A stretch of 64,000 nt of DNA from contig JBEKTQ010000015.1 in the NCBI GenBank assembly GCA_049515895.1, positions 1-64,000 on the forward strand, read 5' to 3'. This DNA is from Candidatus Bathyarchaeia archaeon. Its GTDB lineage: Archaea > Thermoproteota > Bathyarchaeia > Bathyarchaeales > Bathycorpusculaceae. This document shows positions 4,925-29,231 of the stretch, one piece after another (the stretch's first letter is position 1; the number at the start of each line of letters is the position of its first letter). The notes beneath the pieces were generated by a model that worked only from the letters and a program-made list of their open reading frames with translations, did not search any database and was not told where the DNA came from. The position numbers and the translations under genes were made by a program.

Positions 4925-5089
4925 CTATGGGAAAACTCTCGTGTTGTCCTGGCAATGTTCTTTGTTAATTCCAATTTGCTTAGTTCTTATCATAAGATGG
5001 AATCTTGCCTGCGCTGAATAACCGACCGATAAATCAAATTTATTAAGGTATTTAGCCTTAACAAATTGGGATAGGTTGCTCAGATTTTA

Positions 5090-5590
5090 ATGGTTGAAAG
5101 CCAATTAGAAAAAAAGCAAGGAACCAGTTTTTTAGCTCTTACAGTAATCGTTATTGTTATTCTAGTAGTTGTTATCGGCACTCTTGTCGTGTTAGTTGAT
5201 CCAAATTTTGTTTTCTCACTAGTATCAAACAGGTCCACCTACACGGCTGGGGGCTTAATTTATGAAGTAATTTATGTTGTCCTAACCCTTGTCACCGATG
5301 TCTTGTACCTCTTTGGCGGCGGCGTGATTGCTTTTGGTGCCCTTTTGGTTATTATTAGATTTGTGCAGCAGAAACTCAGGGATCCTTATCAACCGACTTC
5401 CTCAACGCGTACTTTGTCTGGGTATTTAACTTTGAGCTTAAACTTTTTCATCGGGGCAGAAATCGTTAGAACGGTGGTTGTTGGAGAGTCTGAGATTGAA
5501 CTTTTGCTTTTAGTCATCGCCAGCAGAGGTCTTTTCAGTTTGATTCTTTATTTGGAAAGAAGATGGCATGGGTCAGCTGAAACAGAATAG
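5090..5590 (+). CDS. DUF1622-like membrane protein with extra N-terminal TM segment
   Basis: LSGYLTLSLNFFIGAEIVRTV...IASRGLFSLILYLE resembles the DUF1622 pattern; several hydrophobic helices. Confidence 0.7.
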   Translation: MVESQLEKKQGTSFLALTVIVIVILVVVIGTLVVLVDPNFVFSLVSNRSTYTAGGLIYEVIYVVLTLVTDVLYLFGGGVIAFGALLVIIRFVQQKLRDPYQPTSSTRTLSGYLTLSLNFFIGAEIVRTVVVGESEIELLLLVIASRGLFSLILYLERRWHGSAETE

Positions 5591-5725
5591 CATTTCTCTC
5601 CATTTTTGAATGGAATTTTGCGGTTCATTTCAATGTGTACTATTCTTTTTGATGTTTACTACTACACACTTTTGTAAGATAAAATTAATGGCTGTTGCAA
5701 GCCTATCACCTAATCGAGGGAGAAG

Positions 5726-6229
5726 ATGGAAAGAAACGAAGAAAAACTAAAAGAGGCAACAAATCTTTTTTCAGGACCTAATCCAACAATAATCAATGAA
5801 TGCCACGGGTTAACGGTACTTGCGGACTCATTCCTGAGGCAATTATTCTACAATTTTATTGACAACACAAAAAAATACGGTAAAAAAGCAACAACAATAA
5901 GAGTACACTTCGAAGACTCCAATCAAGGCAGCTTAAAGTTGATTTATGAGGATAACGGCGTTGGCGTGCCCTACGAGAATAAATCGCATTTATTCAAGGG
6001 AAGGTTTCAGCACAAGCGGCAGCACCGTTTTGGACTTTTCTTCATTAAAAAAATGATTGATGTTTATGACTGGACGATTGAAGAGAATGGCGAATCCGGC
6101 AAAGGAGCCAAATTCGACATAACTATCCCAAAACTGAACAAAAAAGGAGAAGAAAACTACCAAATATGCAAAAACTCGGCACAAGCAATATTGGTTACCG
6201 GTTCCACACAAGAGGTTCTTGCGCAATAA
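5726..6229 (+). pseudogene. Histidine kinase HATPase fragment with compensating frameshifts
   Basis: N box (QLFYNFIDNTKKY) and G1 box (EDNGVGV) present, F/G2 region scrambled; no H-box or sensor domain. Confidence 0.75.
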
Positions 6230-6383
6230 TCCTATTTAACACAAGACAATTCGATTATGAATTTTGTTCTCTTCCCAACCCTGCTTTCAAAGCCACGGTT
6301 CACCCATACTTTCTGTGAACTTCTGAATCGGCTAAGCCAAAGCCGAGATCCGAAAATGACTCTATTGAAGATCCGTTTTCCAT

Positions 6384-9062
6384 TTATTTCTTTGGGGGCA
6401 AACGTACAATGAAGGTTGTTCCTTTACCCTCTTGGCTATCAAAGGTAACGGTGCCTCCTAACGATTCAGTCATGCGCTTAATGACAGGCAATCCGAAGCC
6501 TTGTCCTTTCGATTTTGTTGTGAACATTGGTGTGAACAATTTGTCTTTTACGTTTTCAGGAATCCCTACGCCAGTATCCTTGACTGTTATGAGGACATCG
6601 TTTGCTTCTTTGTAAGCATGAATAGTTAGTTTTCCACCTTTGGGCATAGCTTGAACCGCATTAGTTACCAAATTGTACAATATGCGGTTAATGAAAGTGG
6701 AGTCAGCCAAAACTTTCCCTGCATCATTTTCAACTTTAACGGTTGCTTTAATGTTACGTGGCAGACCGTTCTTTTTCAACAAATCACCAATTATGCGTTT
6801 TAAGTCTGTTTCTTCTACAATTGGTTTAAGCGGTCTAGCAAAATCTTGCAAGTCAGCAACAATCTTGTTAATATAGTCAACGTTTTTTTCAATTTCCTGC
6901 AAACTTTCTAACGCGCTATTTTTCTCCTCACTCTCCGGCAGCGAAGTCAAATCTGTCTTAGCTAAAAAGACATCACCAGTTATAGCCTGCAATGGATTAC
7001 GAATATCGTGACCAACCATACCTGCAGTGGCACCTATAGTAGCTAAACGCTCGGCATCCTTCAATTGAGCAGCTCTTGTGCTTGCAAGCTCCTCCATTTG
7101 ATTGGCATATTCTTCAACTCGAACAGCAGACTCTTCAAGCTTAACTTGTAGCTCTATTCGATCAGTAATATCCACATTCGACTCCAACATTTCAACAATT
7201 TTGCCGTCACCGCCAAATTTGCCCAACCAATAACTCTGCACAACCACTTTTTCGCCATTTTTACACGTATGAACAACTTCACCTGACCATTTCCCTTCAA
7301 GCTCAAGCTTGTTTAGGATCTCCCCAAGTGGTTGCGGAAATTCCGTCTTCAACAGGCCATTGATGTTTTGTCCAAATGCTTCATTTTTGGTCAAACCATA
7401 CATTTTTTCCGCACCCTTGCTCCAGAAAGTAATTGTGCCGTCCAGTTTCCTAACGATGATAGCATCTGGACTGAGATCGATAAGTGCAGCTTGCCTTGCT
7501 AGAGCTTCCTCTGCTTCCTTGCGCTCGGTAATGTCTTCAAATATGGCTGCAAAGTAGCCTTTCTTTGGGCAGTACACAGAAACAGATAGCCACATGCTTA
7601 ATGGCTTGAAAAATATTTCGAACTTTTCTTTCTTGCAGGTAAGGGAAACTCTCCCGTAAATTTCAAACAGTTCCGGATTAGCTCTTTCAGTTCCTGGTAT
7701 TGCTTCAGTGACTTTCTTACCCACGATTGTCTCTCGCTTCAGTCCCGTTATTCTTTCGAAGGAATCATTGATCTGCAGATAAACAAAGTCTATAGGCTTA
7801 TTATTTTCATCGAATATCATTTTGCAGTAAGCAAAACCATCAATCATGTTGACGAACAAAGAACTGTATTCTTCCTCACTTTTCCTTAATGCGTCTTCAG
7901 CTTTCTTGCGCTCAGTAATATCTCGGAAAATGAGCACAACACCCGTAGTTTTGCCGTCTTTATCTTTTATAGGTGCTCCACTGTCGTCTATTGCAACCTC
8001 TGTCTTGTTCTTCCTAATCAGTACTGTATGGTTAGCTAAACCGCAAATCATACCCCGCTCAAGTACTTTGCTAACTGGGTCTTCAACCTCGAGGTGTGTC
8101 TGCTCATTAACGATGTTGAAAACTTCTTTCACTTGTTTAAGTGAAGCCTCGCCCAATGCCCAACCCGTCAACTCTTCAGCTTCGCCATTCATGAAAATGA
8201 TTTTGCCAGATGTATCAGTGGCTATGACAGCGTCACCGATGCTTGCCAAAGTGGTCGCCCAACGCTGCTCACTTTCTCGCAGAGAAGCTTGCGCCTGTTC
8301 CAGGTCAATTTTGGAAGCAGTTACATTCTTGAGGTTAGCCGTCATCTGGTTGAATGCCATAGATATTTCCCCGATTTCATCTTTCTCATCAGCTTTCAAT
8401 GAATAATCAAGATTACCTAAGCCAATAACTCCTATTCCGTCTTGCAATTCAGAAATTGACTTCAAAGTGCTGCGGTAAGTAATAATGTAGTTTGTGATGA
8501 AGAAAGCACCAAATAGTCCTAATAAAGCAACAATAAGAATGACATCGTTGAAGTTTGATTGGTCAACTTGGCCACGCAGATTCTGTGATAACTGTTGTGT
8601 GTCAAAGGAGAGGGCTTGGTTTTGAACAATCAATCGACTCCATTCTGTTTGAAACTGCGGGAGCACACGCACACTTTCATTCCGAGGAGCGTTTTCCAGA
8701 AAAGATGTTACGCCGCTGAATACGTCTTTCAAGTTTTGCAAGTCGCCGTTGACGTTGTTTACTAGCGCCATCTGCTGTGGGCTGGTAGAATTTAGTTTTG
8801 CTAAGTCAGTTGAAAGTGCTGAAAGCTGTGTTTGCCATAAACTAATATCAGCGCTATTCTGATAGAGGAAATAATCGTTTGAAATATAGTTAAGATCACT
8901 AGCTCTATTTTGAACATCCCATGTAATGCCTTCTTGACTATTTAATTGAGATGTCTGCACCTCCGTTATAATCACTGAAGCGACAATAATAGATAGGATA
9001 ATGCTGAAGATTACTATGCTTATCAGGAATTGAGTCTTAATTTTCATCCATCGCCGCCTCAA
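6384..9062 (-). CDS. Membrane sensor histidine kinase (2 TM, HAMP, 3 PAS, HisKA, HATPase)
   Basis: DEIGEISMAFNQM (HAMP), three PAS/PAC units ending DITER/DITDR, GHDIRNPL H-box, DTGVGI and GQGFGL. Confidence 0.95.
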   Translation of the reverse strand: MRRRWMKIKTQFLISIVIFSIILSIIVASVIITEVQTSQLNSQEGITWDVQNRASDLNYISNDYFLYQNSADISLWQTQLSALSTDLAKLNSTSPQQMALVNNVNGDLQNLKDVFSGVTSFLENAPRNESVRVLPQFQTEWSRLIVQNQALSFDTQQLSQNLRGQVDQSNFNDVILIVALLGLFGAFFITNYIITYRSTLKSISELQDGIGVIGLGNLDYSLKADEKDEIGEISMAFNQMTANLKNVTASKIDLEQAQASLRESEQRWATTLASIGDAVIATDTSGKIIFMNGEAEELTGWALGEASLKQVKEVFNIVNEQTHLEVEDPVSKVLERGMICGLANHTVLIRKNKTEVAIDDSGAPIKDKDGKTTGVVLIFRDITERKKAEDALRKSEEEYSSLFVNMIDGFAYCKMIFDENNKPIDFVYLQINDSFERITGLKRETIVGKKVTEAIPGTERANPELFEIYGRVSLTCKKEKFEIFFKPLSMWLSVSVYCPKKGYFAAIFEDITERKEAEEALARQAALIDLSPDAIIVRKLDGTITFWSKGAEKMYGLTKNEAFGQNINGLLKTEFPQPLGEILNKLELEGKWSGEVVHTCKNGEKVVVQSYWLGKFGGDGKIVEMLESNVDITDRIELQVKLEESAVRVEEYANQMEELASTRAAQLKDAERLATIGATAGMVGHDIRNPLQAITGDVFLAKTDLTSLPESEEKNSALESLQEIEKNVDYINKIVADLQDFARPLKPIVEETDLKRIIGDLLKKNGLPRNIKATVKVENDAGKVLADSTFINRILYNLVTNAVQAMPKGGKLTIHAYKEANDVLITVKDTGVGIPENVKDKLFTPMFTTKSKGQGFGLPVIKRMTESLGGTVTFDSQEGKGTTFIVRLPPKK

Positions 9063-17234: not shown

Positions 17235-18959
17235 CTAATAAGTCCTCGCTTTAGGTTCAAAACGGGTAACAACAACGGGTTTGTACCGCGCTTCAAGTCC
17301 TTTGGCGGTGTGGAAAACAAGTGTGTGTTTTAGCCAAGCTTCGTCGTTGCGGTCGGGAAAATCGTTGCGGTAGTGGGCTCCGCGGCTCTCTTCGCGGTTC
17401 AACGCAGAGTAGACAATAACTTCGGAAAGCTTCAGCATGTTTTCCAGCTCCAGCGCTCCTTCAAGCTCATAGTTGAAACGTCTGCCGCGATAGCTTAGCC
17501 CAAGATTAGCCATTCTACCTTGAAGCGTGTGAATTATCCTCAGCGCTTGCTCCAAACCCGCCTGGTCACGGAAAACGCTGCATAACAGAGTCATCACCTT
17601 TTCCATCTCTTGACGGATCACAGCAACACGTTCCTTCCCAGAAGAAGCTAGAACCGAATCGATTTTTGAAGAAACCAGGCGCTCAACACCCGCGCCAAAC
17701 TGGGTTTGCGGGTTCGCAGCAACGTAATTCGCGATGTGCAAACCTGCCCTTTTTCCGAAGACACCCAAGTCAACCAGCGAATTGGTTCCAAGTCTATTTG
17801 CCCCATGAACGCTTACGCATGCGCATTCGCCTGCAGCGTATAACCCAGGAATAACGGTGGATTTCTCATCTGCCAGAACCCGCGCTTGAGCATCAGTAGG
17901 GATACCACCCATCATGTAGTGACACGTTGGCGCAACAGGAATTGGCGTTTCGCTGGCGTCTATTCCGAGGTAGGTCTTCACAAACGATGTAACTTCCGAA
18001 AGCTTGAGCTGCAACTGGTCTTTTCCAAGATGAGTCAAATCCAAGTAGACATAGTCAGATCCTTCGATGCCTCTGCCTTTCGCGACCTCGGTTAAGATGG
18101 CTCTGGAAATGATGTCTCGTGGCGCAAGATCCTTCAGTGTGGGCGCGTAACGTTCCATAAACCGTTCACCCTTGCCGTTTAGCAGCACGCCACCCTCAGC
18201 TCTGGCTGCTTCGCTGACTAGTATGCCTAAGCGGTGAATACCAGTTGGGTGAAATTGGACGAACTCCATGTCTTCAAGCGGAACACCTGCATCGAACGCC
18301 AAAGCGAAACCGTCTCCCGTGGCGGCAAACGACATCGAAGTGGTTTGGAAGATTCTGCCGCAACCACCGGTAGTCAACAAAACTGCCTTTGCATGGAAAA
18401 CTATCGGTTCCCCTGTGGCCAGCTCGTACCCTAAGACGCCACTGCATTGTCCTTCAGACATTAGAAGTGATGTGATGAAGACTTCGTTGAATATTTTTAC
18501 TTTCCGAACCATACAGTGGTCATAGAGCGTGTCCATAATAACGCGCCCAGTCCTATCTGAGGCGTAGCAGGCCCGCTTGACAGGCGCTTCCCCGAAGTTT
18601 TTAGTGTGCCCGCCGAATCTGCGCTGCTCGATCTTCCCTTTGTCGTTGCGACTGAAGGGAACCCCAAGATGCTCCAGCTCAATCACCCTTGCCGGTGCTT
18701 CCCGAGCCAAGATTTCAGCCACATCCTGATCGGCTAAATAGTCGCTTCCTTTCACCGTGTCGAACATGTGCCATTCCCAATGGTCTTCTTCCTCGTTCCC
18801 AAGAGCTGCCGCAATGCCGCCTTGTGCCGCGCCGCTGTGACTGCGGGAAGCATACACCTTGCTAACTACAGCTGTGTTACATGTTTCTGAAGCCGTCAAG
18901 GCAGCCGTCATGCCTGCGATGCCCGCGCCAACTATTACCACATCAAATTCTTGAATCAT
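17235..18959 (-). CDS. sdhA: Succinate dehydrogenase/fumarate reductase flavoprotein
   Basis: [15 protein letters not shown] (covalent FAD His), QFHPTG, HYMMGG, HGANRLG, ESRGAH. Confidence 0.96.
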
Positions 18960-20242
18960 CCTTGATTTTCACTCTGTCCATTTGAAATTAGAATGTCTCT
19001 ATTGACCTCTTCAAGCGAATCGCAGCAGGTCATAAGCATGGCCATTCGCAAATCGCTCTTCACATAGTTAAGGTACATTGACACTGCTTCAGGTCCGCCA
19101 GCGAGACTCATCCACGCAAGTGGTCTGCCGATTAACACCACGTCAGCTCCTAAAGCCAGCAGCTTGAGAACATCGAAACCTGTTCTCACTGCGCCGTCAG
19201 CCATAATGGTTATTTTTCCTTTGAACTCGTCGACTATTTCGGGCAGGATCTCTGCCACGCCTCTGCCGCAATCCATTACTCTGCCCCCGTGATTGCTGAC
19301 GTCAAGCGCTTTTGCGCCTGAATCAACAACTTTTCCCGCATCCTCTGCATTCATGATTCCCTTGTAGATGATTGGCTTTTCCGTGGCGTCAACCAGTTCT
19401 TTGAGTTCACTTTCGCTTTTGCGGTAAAGCGGCTTACCCCTCAGGGCCCAGTTAGTTGAGCCGTAACCGTCTAAGTCTACGCCAATTCCTAAGACATTGG
19501 CTTGTTCGCATCGCTGAAAAAGGGTTAGAAGACGCTCTTGCGTCTGCGGTTTAAAAACGGGGATGCCCCAACCGCCAAGCCTGCCAATAACGTCTATTCC
19601 AGGGTGATCTGGCGCATCAACAGTGTGGCCGCTTAACCCAATGGTGCCTGCCTGTTTAGCTCCTTCTACCATGCCTCTCTGAAATTCCGATTCGCTTAAC
19701 GCGTTATTCATGCTTATGACCGTCCCGCTGAAGCTTGTCGCCAAAACTGGAAAAGCAATCTTATTGCCCAGAAAAACCGTTTCTAAAATTGGTTCACTAT
19801 GCTCTCTGATTACCTTCATATTTAGCTTGTACCGTGACAGAGCTTGAAAGTTCGCACTCCACGTTTGGCCTTGCCCCGCGCCTCCGAAGCCGACGGGTTT
19901 ACCGTACTTCATTCCTTGACAGAGCCGGTCAGAGTCTCCGTCACAGACCTTGTTTACCGCACAAACTCTAGCGAGCTGTTTTCTAGCGATGTCACGATAG
20001 TAGGCAATATCTTTTAGTGGCTTTTCACTTGTCGGCGGATAGTTTTTTTCGTATTTTGTCCTTGCAGAGGCGTATTCTTGATCACTGATTTCCACGAGGT
20101 TGCCTTTCCAATGTCCGCAGACCGGGCAACGCCACGCTTCAGCAATTTTCTCCAACCTTATTCCCAAAGGCAGTTCTGCCCCTAGATCACCTTTTTCCTC
20201 GTCAAAAGTGAAACTGCCGCAAAATCCGCATATGAACTTCAA
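18956..20242 (-). CDS. Rubredoxin fused to FMN-dependent alpha-hydroxy-acid dehydrogenase (LldD/glycolate oxidase family)
   Basis: N-terminal CGFCG...WRCPVCG; [20 protein letters not shown]. Confidence 0.9.
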
Positions 20243-25964: not shown

Positions 25965-26096
25965 AAAACAAGTTACCGATAACTGTGTCGTTGAGCCCAA
26001 GCGCCAACTTGGGTTCCAAAAGATTTATCTTTAAACCTAAACAGACTACTAGATGACTGCCATGTTTTGAGCAGTTTTTTAGAGCGAGACGTTTTT

Positions 26097-27053
26097 ATGA
26101 GCCAGAATAACTCCAGAAAAATTAGTTCCGAAGACCTTAAGCAGTTCGATGGGTCAAATGGAAAACCTTTATACGTTGTTTTCAAGGGCAAAATATACGA
26201 CTTGACAACCAGCCAGCTTTGGCTTGAAGGCAAACACATGGGCATGCACGGCAGAACCGACGATTTAACTGAAGCAATAAAAACCGCTCCGCATGGCGAA
26301 GACAACGTTTACAGATTCCCGATTGTCGGCGAAATTGCCGAAGCGGTTATGCAGGCTCCAGTTGCCACGCCTGCAGTGGAAAAGCCTGTTGAGCCCCAAG
26401 TTCAGCCCGTAATCGGCACTTCTCCCGCAGTCATGGAGAGACGCACGTTCCTAAAGCTGGCAGCGGCGGCGGGAGGAGCAATAACGATCGCGGCACTGTT
26501 TTCAACCCTAAAAGCTGGAACTTTTGTGCCACCGCCGACCGCAACAGCAGCTTGGCCTGTGGTCACCGTTACAAACATAGGTAAGTTGACAAATCTCACA
26601 CCAATAGTGTTCTATTACCCTTTAACCAGCACACCGAATTACCTTGTTAAGTTAGGGGTGGCAGCCACAGGTGGCATCGGACCTGAAAAAGACATAGTGG
26701 CCTTCAGCGCGATTTGCCAGCACTTGGGATGCGAGTACGGTTTCGTGGCTCCAGGCGGCTCACCACCCTGCAACTCCGCTTATAAGGTGGCTATTCCTAT
26801 GGGCTACTGCTGCTGCCACGGCTCACAGTACGATTTCGTTCGTGGCGCGAAGGTGATTGGAGGCCCAGCTCCACGACCTGTGCCTATGGTTCAACTACAA
26901 CTGAATTCAGCAACAGGAGATATAACCGCTGTTGGGATGCAGTCGCCAACGATTTTTGGGCATGGGCCGCCTGGAACCATGGATCCCGCGTTGGTTATGC
27001 AGTATGATTTGCAGGGTGGAGATTTAGTGACGCAATCCACTGTTTTGGGATGA
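26097..27053 (+). CDS. Cytochrome b5-like domain + Tat anchor + Rieske [2Fe-2S] protein (SoxL/AioB-like)
   Basis: LKQFDG..GKPLYV.FKGKIYDLT..W.EGKH...APHG (b5-like); MERRTFLK plus TM helix; CQHLGC and CCCHGSQYD; GPAPRP. Confidence 0.9.
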   Translation: MSQNNSRKISSEDLKQFDGSNGKPLYVVFKGKIYDLTTSQLWLEGKHMGMHGRTDDLTEAIKTAPHGEDNVYRFPIVGEIAEAVMQAPVATPAVEKPVEPQVQPVIGTSPAVMERRTFLKLAAAAGGAITIAALFSTLKAGTFVPPPTATAAWPVVTVTNIGKLTNLTPIVFYYPLTSTPNYLVKLGVAATGGIGPEKDIVAFSAICQHLGCEYGFVAPGGSPPCNSAYKVAIPMGYCCCHGSQYDFVRGAKVIGGPAPRPVPMVQLQLNSATGDITAVGMQSPTIFGHGPPGTMDPALVMQYDLQGGDLVTQSTVLG

Positions 27054-27060
27054 CTTGATT

Positions 27061-28578
27061 ATGTCTGAAGAAATTGAGAAGAAGAATGCTTATGACAAAC
27101 TTGTCGACTGGTTTGACGTGAAGTTCGGCTTCGCTAAGACTCCGCTTAAGCCGATTCCAGACTTTATGATGAACCCGATTTATTGGCTTGGCTTGCTGTT
27201 AGCGGTGACTTTCGGCTTGCAGGCTTTAACCGGGATCTTCATGCTTCTCTACTACGTCCCCACGCCTGCCCAAGCCTTCTCGTCGACAGCATCGATTATC
27301 AGTTCGGTGCCTCTTGGCTCGCTTGTTGAAACCTTCCACCTGTACACCGCCTACGCCATGATTATCTTAATGTTTTTGCATTTGGTCCGCAACTTTTTCG
27401 GCAGCGCACATAAAGGCAACAGGGATTTGATGTGGCTTGTCGGAATCGTATTAGCCGTCGTGGTGATTAGCTTCGGCGTGACAGGGTACCTTTTGCCGTG
27501 GACGGTGATTTCTAAGTCTGCAAGCGACGTCGCCATCGGATTCCTAAACTTCTTCCCGGTTGGAATTGCAAACCTGGGAAAGTTCGTGGCGGTAGGCTCC
27601 GGCAGCGATGCATCGGAGTTGACAACTTTCCTTCACATCCACACCGTTTTCCTTCCATTGGCGTTGATCGGGCTTTTAGGGTTGAAGATTTACATGTACG
27701 AGGTCCACGGCCCAATGTATGTGCCAGCATACGGGAAACCTGGAAAAGGCAAGTACAATAATTGGTTCCCAAAAATCTTCCTCTACTTTGTCATGCTTGC
27801 AAGCGCTTACGTGGCGATTTTGCTGGCTGCATCTTCTCTTTTCCCGCTTTCCTTGCCGCCTGCATACTCCGCGGCCACAGCCGGTGCCTACGTCGTCCAG
27901 CCTGATTGGTATCTGCTTTGGGTTTATCAACTCTTGAAAATCCAAGTTTTTGAAGGACCCGCAGCAGCTTACTTGATAGCTGCGCTGATTGCTTTCGGAG
28001 TGCTTCTTTTCCTTATGCCTTTCTACGACCGAAGCAAACGAAGAAACATCAGCCAAAGACCAGTCTACACTACAATCGGCTCGGTGCTAATAATTGAGCT
28101 TATTACGCTAACCATTTGGGGATACTTGACTCCTGGAATAATAATCCCAGACTACCAAGCCGTTTTGGTTTTAGGCGGAGTAGCTGTCGCAACTATCGCT
28201 GTGATATGGGCCGTTTATAGAATTAGACGAAAAACAAACGCAGCATCTATGCTGCCCGCGCAATCGACCACTAACTCCCTCTCAACCAACTCATCTGGAA
28301 CGAGTCCTGCCTCCATAGTGCAGGCATCTGCTCAACCTAAGAAACAAAGGGTCAAGCTAGCTGGTCAGAGCCTATTCAATCCGTTCACTGCTGTCTTCGC
28401 AATTTTCCTTGCGGTTGCATCAGTTTCTTTAGCATCAGCCGTAAACATGCTACCCACCATCTTGGCGAACGGACCGTTTTTTGCCTTGGCTCTGAGCGCT
28501 TTTGCCGTTTCGTCTTTTTTCATGTGTCGGATGCTTCGGAAGTTTGTTTTATCGTATGAGGGAGCGGTGGCTAAATAA
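27061..28578 (+). CDS. Cytochrome b of a Rieske/cytochrome b complex (fused b6 + subunit IV type, extra C-terminal helices)
   Basis: QALTGIFMLLYYVP, H-x13-H in helix B, TGYLLPW, QPDWY (PEWY equivalent), PFYDRS...RP. Confidence 0.92.
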   Translation: MSEEIEKKNAYDKLVDWFDVKFGFAKTPLKPIPDFMMNPIYWLGLLLAVTFGLQALTGIFMLLYYVPTPAQAFSSTASIISSVPLGSLVETFHLYTAYAMIILMFLHLVRNFFGSAHKGNRDLMWLVGIVLAVVVISFGVTGYLLPWTVISKSASDVAIGFLNFFPVGIANLGKFVAVGSGSDASELTTFLHIHTVFLPLALIGLLGLKIYMYEVHGPMYVPAYGKPGKGKYNNWFPKIFLYFVMLASAYVAILLAASSLFPLSLPPAYSAATAGAYVVQPDWYLLWVYQLLKIQVFEGPAAAYLIAALIAFGVLLFLMPFYDRSKRRNISQRPVYTTIGSVLIIELITLTIWGYLTPGIIIPDYQAVLVLGGVAVATIAVIWAVYRIRRKTNAASMLPAQSTTNSLSTNSSGTSPASIVQASAQPKKQRVKLAGQSLFNPFTAVFAIFLAVASVSLASAVNMLPTILANGPFFALALSAFAVSSFFMCRMLRKFVLSYEGAVAK

Positions 28579-29231
28579 TGAAGCGTGACTTTGACTCTTT
28601 GCGTGTCACTGCCTATTTCCTTTTGGTTTTTCTAATTGTTGTTGGAGTGGCAGTTTGGCTTTTGAACCTAATCAGTCAACAAAGGATTTTCGGTTTCTTG
28701 ATGGGCGCTGAATTCGTTGCGTTCGCCATGCTCGTCTACCTTTTTTACATGGAAGACCCCGTAGCCGCCAAGAAAATATTATTCTCGGGGTTCGTTGCCT
28801 TAGGAATCCTAGTTGTATTAGCGGCTGCCGTTTTAGGAGGCATTGGTACACCTGCGACGTTGCCCAAACCCAATGTCTCAGTAACCCTCTACGCGGGGGA
28901 AGTTTCTCTTACACAGTACGGGTTCGGCAACGACGCAATCTCCATAACTTCGCCGGGTCCGACTTTAACCTTCACCGTTGGCGATGTTGTGAACATGACC
29001 GTTTTCAACGCGGGAACCATGCCTCATAATTGGGCGCTAGTCGCTTCCAAGGATACCTCAGGCAAAGTTCTGTTCGGCGCAGTAATCGACAGCGGTCAAG
29101 TCCCCATACCGCCTAACGAAACAGCATCGGTTGTTTTTAGAGTCACAAAATCGGGGAACTACTTCTACATTTGTCAGGTTGCGGGTCACGTTCAGTCAGG
29201 CATGTGGGGTAATGTGGTAGTGAATCCGTGA
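28578..29231 (+). CDS. Membrane-anchored (3 TM) blue copper protein, sulfocyanin/rusticyanin-like
   Basis: PGPTL...MPHNW...YICQVAGHVQSGMWG gives the type-1 Cu ligand set H/C/H/M. Confidence 0.9.
   Translation: MKRDFDSLRVTAYFLLVFLIVVGVAVWLLNLISQQRIFGFLMGAEFVAFAMLVYLFYMEDPVAAKKILFSGFVALGILVVLAAAVLGGIGTPATLPKPNVSVTLYAGEVSLTQYGFGNDAISITSPGPTLTFTVGDVVNMTVFNAGTMPHNWALVASKDTSGKVLFGAVIDSGQVPIPPNETASVVFRVTKSGNYFYICQVAGHVQSGMWGNVVVNP

Follow-up and report, generated by a model that had tools for sequence, protein, structure and literature searches.

The window analysed here is a stretch of 64,000 nucleotides from a Candidatus Bathyarchaeia archaeon genome (assembly GCA_049515895.1, contig JBEKTQ010000015.1, positions 1 to 64,000), and the gene under study occupies positions 26097..27053 of its + strand. 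This gene encodes 318 residues and a stop codon and, as delineated by its open frame, homologue coverage and Pfam matches, joins four parts in one frame: a cytochrome b5M (MAPR-like b5) domain, a linker, a twin-arginine helix and a Rieske domain. The frame is open without a break from 26067 (TTG) or 26097 (ATG) to 27053; the N-termini of relatives (MSQNN-like) begin at the position of the ATG at 26097, which gives the 318-residue protein. The stop codon is followed after 2 nucleotides by the partner subunit, a SoxC-like cytochrome b of 507 aa (27055..28578, +), and then by a membrane-anchored blue-copper (cupredoxin) protein (28578..29231, +; Pfam Cu-oxidase_2/3, SoxE and Copper-bind), which is likely the electron acceptor of the Rieske head. 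An AlphaFold2 model of the whole protein was poor (mean confidence score, pLDDT, 57.5; below 50 at residues 40-69 and 84-151; about 30 in the linker) and was not used.

The first part, residues 1-82 (26097..26342, +), is a heme domain by comparison with solved structures. Run with phmmer against all PDB sequences, residues 1-85 matched 6vz6_A (E 7.2e-17) and 6nzx_A (E 1.6e-16), both proteins of 78 residues, in gapless alignments over 72-74 residues. According to the available text of one report (10.1101/2021.11.30.470528), 6VZ6 (Methanococcoides burtonii) and 6NZX (Hadesarchaea) are heme-bound cytb5M crystal structures in which the heme is buried and six-coordinate, with two axial histidines, H42 and H61 in the numbering of that paper, on the iron, a hydrogen bond from S34 and, in 6NZX, a further heme contact by H46. 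The numbering of the aligned chain runs one ahead of that in the paper. The spacing of these residues (Ser, +8 His, +4 His, +15 His) is identical to that of S39, H47, H51 and H66 in the window protein, such that H47 (26235-26237, +) and H66 (26292-26294, +) align with the axial histidines and S39 (26211-26213, +) and H51 (26247-26249, +) with the other heme contacts. These four residues and W42 are invariant in 23/23 aligned relatives, with identities down to 56%, as are G45 and the A64-P65 pair. Because the spacing matches that of the solved structures and the residues are invariant in 23 relatives, GKHMGMH and APHG correspond to the ligand motifs of a family in which heme binding is proven, and the sequence places the N-terminal domain in the cytochrome b5M family. 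An earlier note on this DNA, made from the sequence alone, had proposed a b5-like domain of about 80 residues with candidate ligands in these two motifs, and the alignment bears this out.

The second and third parts had also been described in that note and are real. The linker (residues 83-112, 26343..26432, +), delimited by composition, conservation and substitution rates, is rich in Val, Pro, Ala and Gln (V7 P6 A5 Q3 of 30 residues) and appears flexible; it corresponds to poorly conserved alignment columns and varies among relatives in sequence and slightly in length. It leads into an internal twin-arginine signal-anchor (26433..26510, +), M113-E-R115-R116-T-F-L-K120 with a hydrophobic stretch after it up to L138, which is predicted to be uncleaved and inserted N-in. 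R115, R116, F118, L119 and K120 are invariant in 23/23 relatives, and the sole strongly hydrophobic stretch of the protein (residues 117-136; highest Kyte-Doolittle mean over 19 residues, 1.71) comes directly after this invariant M/L-x-R-R-x-F-L-K motif. The twin-arginine translocation (Tat) signal model TIGR01409 of NCBIfam was passed (20.8 bits; cut-off, 16.7), and Pfam TAT_signal scored 19.2 bits at residues 113-131 (cut-off, 22.7). In four non-fused relatives, labelled Nitrososphaerales, Thaumarchaeota, Bathyarchaeia and an unclassified 'bacterium' (L010, L012, L014 and L017; site at about 6001 in each, and at 2994 in L014), Lys-Arg (SKRNFLK) replaces Arg-Arg in the motif.

The fourth part is a Rieske [2Fe-2S] domain (residues ~150-318, 26544..27050, +), which is predicted to be exported. 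Pfam Rieske matches residues 197-264 with 22.2 bits, above its cut-off of 20.3, and the cluster-binding residues, CxHxGC and CxCHGS, are invariant in 23/23 relatives. We take these motifs to be Rieske box I (C207-Q-H209-L-G-C212, 26715-26732, +) and box II (C238-C-C240-H241-G-S, 26808-26825, +). Pfam matched Cyt-b5 in 20/23 relatives, TAT_signal in 23/23 and Rieske in 23/23. Two other names for the protein were not supported. Arsenite oxidase small subunit AioB, the name given to relatives by one source, scored 77.7 bits against TIGR02694, below the equivalog cut-off of 95.65, and the neighbouring gene is a cytochrome b rather than a molybdopterin subunit (AioA was not searched for in the genome). 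The SoxL2 Rieske protein of Sulfolobales scored 66.4 bits against TIGR03171, for which the equivalog cut-off is 582.1.

The neighbouring cytochrome b was identified by Pfam Cytochrome_B (1.2e-28) and Cytochrom_B_C (1.1e-10), and by NCBIfam SoxC at 211 bits, which is under the cut-off. It lies directly downstream of the Rieske fusion in 8/8 fused loci, and the order Rieske, cytochrome b, cupredoxin is likewise kept in 8/8. H95, H109, H196, K211 and H218 are invariant in 13/13 cytochromes b, and the Qo motif is present as PDWY.

The fusion is conserved and under purifying selection. A word-indexed search gave 618 relatives at E <= 1e-3; of the 120 homologues listed, 115 align over at least 93% of the query, are 57-92% identical to it and have lengths of 300-363 residues, and the remaining five are pieces of 206-300 aa. 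Pairwise ratios of nonsynonymous to synonymous substitution rates (dN/dS) among the window and eight species-level loci were 0.11 for the b5M domain, 0.26 for the linker, 0.11 for the Tat-anchor and 0.06 for the Rieske domain, from the 12-14 of 36 pairs that passed a filter of dS < 3 and with dS values, 1.5-1.9, that are high and near saturation. Among closer metagenome relatives the median for the b5M domain was 0.106 (21 pairs, dS 0.3-1.5). Since purifying selection acts on the 112 codons ahead of it, the Met at 26433, raised in the earlier note as a possible translation start, is not the only start; a second product from it is possible. Contigs derived from reads agree with the window. One short-read contig (X1, record 4) covers 26138-27100 with 0 differences and 0 gaps, two further ones (X2, records 12 and 13) tile 26016-27100 with 0 differences, and a contig of a soil relative (X4, record 19) crosses 26286-26446, where it has 17 substitutions and 0 gaps; X1 and X2 are possibly the source samples and thus no independent check on the assembly. 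No insertion or deletion was found inside 26097-27053 in these contigs, and neither they nor the window show a stop or frameshift in the linker, the defect that the earlier note had asked to be looked for.

Full-length fusions are confined to a small group of archaea. Among species-representative genomes, 512 stretches encode a relative, and the locus counts given here use the best 80 of these. Residues 1-318 were matched in eight of the 80 only (L001-L008), all from Bathyarchaeia metagenome-assembled genomes, and the N-terminal domain searched alone by tblastn was found in 8 of the best 80. The other 72 loci, from Nitrososphaerales, other Bathyarchaeia, Thermoplasmata and others, match from residue ~95-158 on. 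The closest non-fused relatives are 42-58% identical in the Rieske part, and in 19/20 non-fused relatives the open reading frame (ORF) starts 7-30 hydrophilic residues before the RR/KR motif. A free b5M gene standing beside a non-fused Rieske gene was considered as the precursor of the fusion and was rejected, as tblastn detected no b5M gene within ~6 kb at any of these loci (0/72). In a sample of 401 genomes from the class there were 7 full-length matches and 1 in two adjacent pieces; all eight carriers belong to a single family, f1, and within it to three genera (g1, 4/41 with the window's own genome counted; g6, 2/12; g23, 2/2). These carriers are largely the same genomes as L001-L008, which makes the two counts interdependent. 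Families f33 and f24 have non-fused Rieske homologues, and free b5M genes, matching residues ~5-85, occur across the class. Clustering at 50% left one full-length fusion representative (P0119) among the 150 best of 1699 hits. This distribution, with one family and one full-length cluster, points to a single, fairly young domain gain within one Bathyarchaeia family. One fused protein, 76% identical (P0023), is labelled 'Candidatus Limnocylindrales bacterium' by one source, likely through a binning error, since every other relative with a name belongs to Bathyarchaeia.

A variant that has lost the Rieske head was found on a 44.8-kb metagenome contig (L087, positions 5001-7509), the only example of this form with DNA context. 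The order there is polyprenyl synthase, a 166-aa ORF, a 500-aa cytochrome b, a 170-aa cupredoxin and, on the opposite strand, UbiA. In the 166-aa ORF, the b5M domain and linker are followed by METREFLK, the helix and a second, duplicated helix, and there is no Rieske domain; the ORF overlaps the start of an intact cytochrome b gene through ATGA. Three protein clusters (P0272, with five member sequences, P0275 and P0273) have the same form at 76-91% identity to L087, and the form spans 166-177 aa. The fusion is full-length (316-319 aa) at 8 of the 12 closest metagenome loci and Rieske-less at 1; at the remaining 3 it runs off the contig. S39, W42, H47, H51 and H66 are kept in all four Rieske-less sequences, and dN/dS for the b5M domain of L087 against full-length relatives is 0.14-0.22 (7 pairs). 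The twin arginine has become Thr-Arg in 3/4. This change where the Rieske head has been lost lends indirect support to Tat dependence of the fusion, the twin arginine being needed only while a folded head must be exported. The retention of the b5M domain and anchor with cytochrome b after loss of the head suggests that the business of the heme domain is with cytochrome b or the membrane and not with the Rieske cluster. It thereby favours, indirectly, the cytoplasmic redox port that the earlier note had put forward.

The Rieske head has to get to the membrane's outer side to serve the Qo site, and the Tat system exports whatever is C-terminal to its signal. We infer from this that the twin-arginine helix inserts N-in, that the folded Rieske head is exported by Tat and that the b5M domain should stay in the cytoplasm, tethered by ~30 residues of linker at the cytoplasmic side (N-side) of the complex. 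The earlier note had drawn the same topology, heme inside and Rieske outside; the twin arginine, the single helix between the two domains, the presence of TatC in the genome (120.8 bits, contig C13) and a published precedent all favour it, while the side assigned to each domain is itself a prediction. The precedent is given in a 2026 review (PMC13673990), the available text of which assigns proteins with a folded cis-side N-domain and an internal uncleaved Tat signal to "Class V Tat substrates", with FecR as the example, ordinary Rieske proteins to Class III and three-helix actinobacterial ones to Class IV.

The b5M domain shares with the cytb5M proteins 6VZ6 and 6NZX a gapless b5 sequence of ~75 residues and the same axial His and Ser/His contacts; those are free-standing proteins of 78 residues, whereas here the domain forms the N-terminus of a membrane respiratory subunit. 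Canonical Rieske proteins (those of bc1, b6f and the archaeal SoxL/SoxF type; Class III) resemble it in their uncleaved twin-arginine signal-anchor, their CxHxGC and CxCHGS boxes and an adjacent cytochrome b, but carry a short hydrophilic region before the twin arginine in place of a folded heme domain of 82 residues and a 30-residue linker. FecR-type Class V substrates have the same predicted topology and order of parts, as far as the available text of the review describes them (PMC13673990). FecR, however, is a signalling anti-sigma regulator without a redox cofactor, whereas both domains here are of redox types and belong to a respiratory subunit. Actinobacterial QcrA/Sco2149, a dual Sec/Tat Class IV substrate, is also a Rieske protein with an internal Tat motif in the available accounts (PMC3471235, PMC5449189). 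In that protein the motif is preceded by two membrane helices and not by a soluble cofactor domain. Heme cn (ci) of b6f, for which a role in electron input from the stromal side has been proposed, is similar by analogy of function only, as an extra N-side heme in a Rieske/cytochrome b complex. It is bound covalently inside cytochrome b6 at Qi, unlike the separate tethered domain of another subunit seen here, and there is no homology between the two. The available text of PMC4122944 mentions heme cn as absent from bc1.

Our literature searches gave no published description of a b5-Rieske fusion, in agreement with the earlier note, which did not know it from characterised complexes. The main texts of two cytb5M preprints (supplements not covered) contain neither 'Rieske' nor 'Bathyarchae', and one Bathyarchaeia paper with both a b5 and a Rieske term concerns, in its available text, unrelated small soluble Rieske proteins. 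The parts and the class of topology are known; their combination, and its place in a respiratory complex, appear to be undescribed.

We regard the gene as coding for the Rieske subunit in a quinol:blue-copper-protein oxidoreductase, the archaeal Rieske/cytochrome b complex of an aerobic Bathyarchaeia lineage from soil and peat. This subunit has gained an N-terminal bis-histidine b5M domain, which, with a probability that we put at about 0.5, serves together with cytochrome b as an electron-transfer module on the N-side. The tethered b5M heme would act alongside cytochrome b, with electrons passing between a cytoplasmic partner and the heme bH/Qi side and hence the quinone pool, such that the complex would gain a third redox entry or exit besides Qo and Qi. 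In the literature searched, known Rieske/cytochrome b complexes exchange electrons only via the two quinone sites and the outward Rieske head. With a conserved heme domain at the cytoplasmic end of its Rieske subunit, one of the best-studied energy-converting enzymes would acquire a link to the soluble side. Such a domain would also give the first functional context for cytochrome b5M, proposed as prokaryotic ancestors of the eukaryotic MAPR/PGRMC proteins, and add a redox enzyme to a rare Tat class in which a folded cytoplasmic domain precedes an internal signal.

Several findings weigh against this interpretation. With the whole protein scored, the Pfam Cyt-b5 match (residues 11-80) has 21.2 bits (E 3e-4), short of the cut-off of 23.7, although the b5 stretch reaches 24.1 bits, above that cut-off, in a genome-wide scan with the same model; 3 of the 23 relatives, each scanned singly, miss Cyt-b5 at E <= 0.01. 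In other proteins, b5M domains often form extracytoplasmic repeats that follow signal peptides or lipoprotein signals, and the family is without a fixed cellular side or a known function. The dN/dS estimates from the species-level loci are affected by the near-saturated dS already given. A start-type codon stands two codons before the twin arginine in 7/8 DNA sequences (ATG in 6 and TTG in 1, with ATT in the eighth), and among 23 proteins this position holds Met 16 times, Leu 5 times and Ile twice; an additional Rieske product without the b5M domain could thus be made from Met113. The frame is broken in the linker of one species genome (L008, the same as G342) at a run of seven A (L008:6234-6365; G342:C5:73173-74127). 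This is probably an assembly indel, since an A7 homopolymer is a typical place for such errors; the alternative would be a natural split into b5M and Rieske pieces. Finally, the cupredoxin of the Rieske-less L087 is shortened (170 versus 217 aa), and that cluster may be decaying.

The N-side module would go furthest if the b5M domain were a true third redox port, through which soluble cytoplasmic dehydrogenases feed or withdraw quinone-pool electrons via b5M and the N-side heme of cytochrome b. We hold this extended form to be tentative and somewhat doubtful. Candidate partners would be the neighbouring SdhAB, for which no classical anchor was found, and a rubredoxin-fused FMN dehydrogenase. 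In that case, enzymes otherwise lacking an anchor would find both their membrane anchor and their quinone reductase in the complex, as an archaeal functional counterpart of the electron input at heme cn in b6f, and the Rieske-less variant, with b5M, anchor and cytochrome b, would be a stripped-down form of the port activity. The earlier note had suggested a specific link to SdhAB or to the soluble flavoenzymes of the block; it was supported by no test. SdhBA lies within 7 kb in the window and is immediately upstream of the fusion in 2/8 fused relatives (L005 and L006). The description of SdhAB as anchor-less is not established: a family search found no Sdh_cyt anchor in the genome, but two CCG-domain proteins encoded on other contigs could serve as a non-classical Sdh anchor.

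It is also possible, though unlikely, that the Rieske helix is merely a membrane tether and that the b5M domain serves other enzymes, such as membrane desaturases or oxygenases or soluble flavoenzymes, without any electron transfer to or from the Rieske/cytochrome b complex. Eukaryotic b5 and MAPR proteins are membrane-anchored, and such an arrangement would resemble the tail-anchored eukaryotic cytochrome b5. The Rieske-less forms, which retain only b5M and helices, are consistent with it, as are the fusion of b5M to an unrelated membrane domain, DUF2231, in another protein (P0164) and the two free b5M paralogues of this genome, one of them beside an Old-Yellow-Enzyme-like (OYE-like) flavoenzyme. 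However, a simple anchor could have arisen anywhere, whereas the domain was found only on the Rieske subunit preceding cytochrome b, in 8/8 loci, and even the Rieske-less form is translationally overlapped with cytochrome b.

A role in biogenesis or regulation, with the domain as a sensor of heme, redox state or O2 or as a supplier of heme, is distinctly improbable. In such a role it would control whether Tat exports the Rieske head, how cytochrome b is loaded with heme or how active the complex is, and would carry no catalytic electrons. It does stand directly before the Tat signal, at the place on which chaperones controlling export act in other Tat substrates. The Class V substrate FecR is a signalling protein (PMC13673990), and eukaryotic MAPR relatives are implicated in heme handling (10.1101/2021.11.30.470528), in the available text of these sources. 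A buried, six-coordinate bis-His heme such as that of the solved relatives, however, is typical of electron carriers and ill-suited to gas binding or heme hand-over. Because the domain persists after the loss of the Rieske head and the decay of the twin arginine, its role cannot be limited to control of Tat export.

That there is no functional fusion at all, the gene being an assembly or annotation artefact or a separate b5M fragment followed by a Rieske protein started at Met 26433, is very improbable: the start-type codon before the twin arginine, the one broken linker and a cluster of 206 aa with the Rieske part only (P0097, on a 75-kb contig) would fit, but the frame is intact in the window and the read-derived contigs, no stop codon ends a separate b5M product ahead of the Rieske part, nearly all listed homologues (115/120) and two-thirds of the close metagenome loci (8/12) span both parts, and the broken linker has its break at a homopolymer.

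The surroundings of the fusion are those of respiratory and quinone metabolism. The island in the window includes TCA-cycle (tricarboxylic acid cycle) and quinone-biosynthesis genes. A UbiE-like methyltransferase gene comes next after the cupredoxin in the window and is found in 6/8 fused loci; polyprenyl synthase or sucCD lies upstream. The genome has one COX1 gene. COX1 was detected in 4/5 other carriers tested (the exception, G358, is 95% complete) versus 1/5 non-carriers of the same genus, in small samples of related genomes. The fusion would be a marker of the aerobic Bathyarchaeia of soil and peat, a lineage otherwise considered anaerobic. A soil Bathyarchaeia genus that has cytochrome c oxidases and lives (micro)aerobically has been described in the available text of PMC10321748, and "cytochrome b" is absent from the main text of that paper.

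In the cytochrome b itself, Lys211 (27685-27687) occupies the position of the fourth heme-ligand His, in helix D at the N-side heme, in 13/13 archaeal cytochromes b, non-fused ones included, and aligns with a His of cytochrome b6 in 7r0w_I. The available text of PMC4122944 calls the four heme-ligand His of cytochrome b strictly conserved, and no mention of a His-to-Lys change in archaeal cytochrome b was found in it. No second archaeal-type Rieske homologue was detected in the genome at E <= 1e-10. A bacterial-type Rieske protein of 152 aa lies with a cytochrome b6-like gene and a CxxCH cytochrome on a 2-kb contig (G000:C52:1-2064; L085), which is probably a contaminant; the contamination estimate of the genome is 4.87%.

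Other b5M proteins were met in the searches. The two free paralogues of the window's own genome are of 82 aa and ~115 aa; one is at G000:C8:12185-12421 (-), and the other, at G000:C19:14949-15197 (-), has a hydrophobic N-terminal extension and adjoins the Old-Yellow-Enzyme-like flavin oxidoreductase, which is present as a fragment. Four proteins (P0122, P0124, P0128 and P0131) carry a signal-anchor or lipoprotein signal followed by three to six b5M domains in tandem, in some cases with acidic Asp/Glu/His-rich tails, and are presumably extracytoplasmic multi-heme b-type chains. A possible second b5M-Tat architecture with other cargo (P0168) was rejected, as it is a single sequence on a 905-bp contig with a C-terminal part that has no homologue, and only its first 47-67% matches the fused Rieske family.

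Among the neighbouring genes, window positions 18956-20242 (-) encode a rubredoxin domain fused to an FMN-dependent 2-hydroxyacid dehydrogenase domain. This gene overlaps SdhA (17235-18959, -) and appears to be co-transcribed with SdhA and SdhB; in L005 and L006 it is absent from between SdhA and polyprenyl synthase. The arrangement recalls flavocytochrome b2, with rubredoxin replacing the b5 domain.

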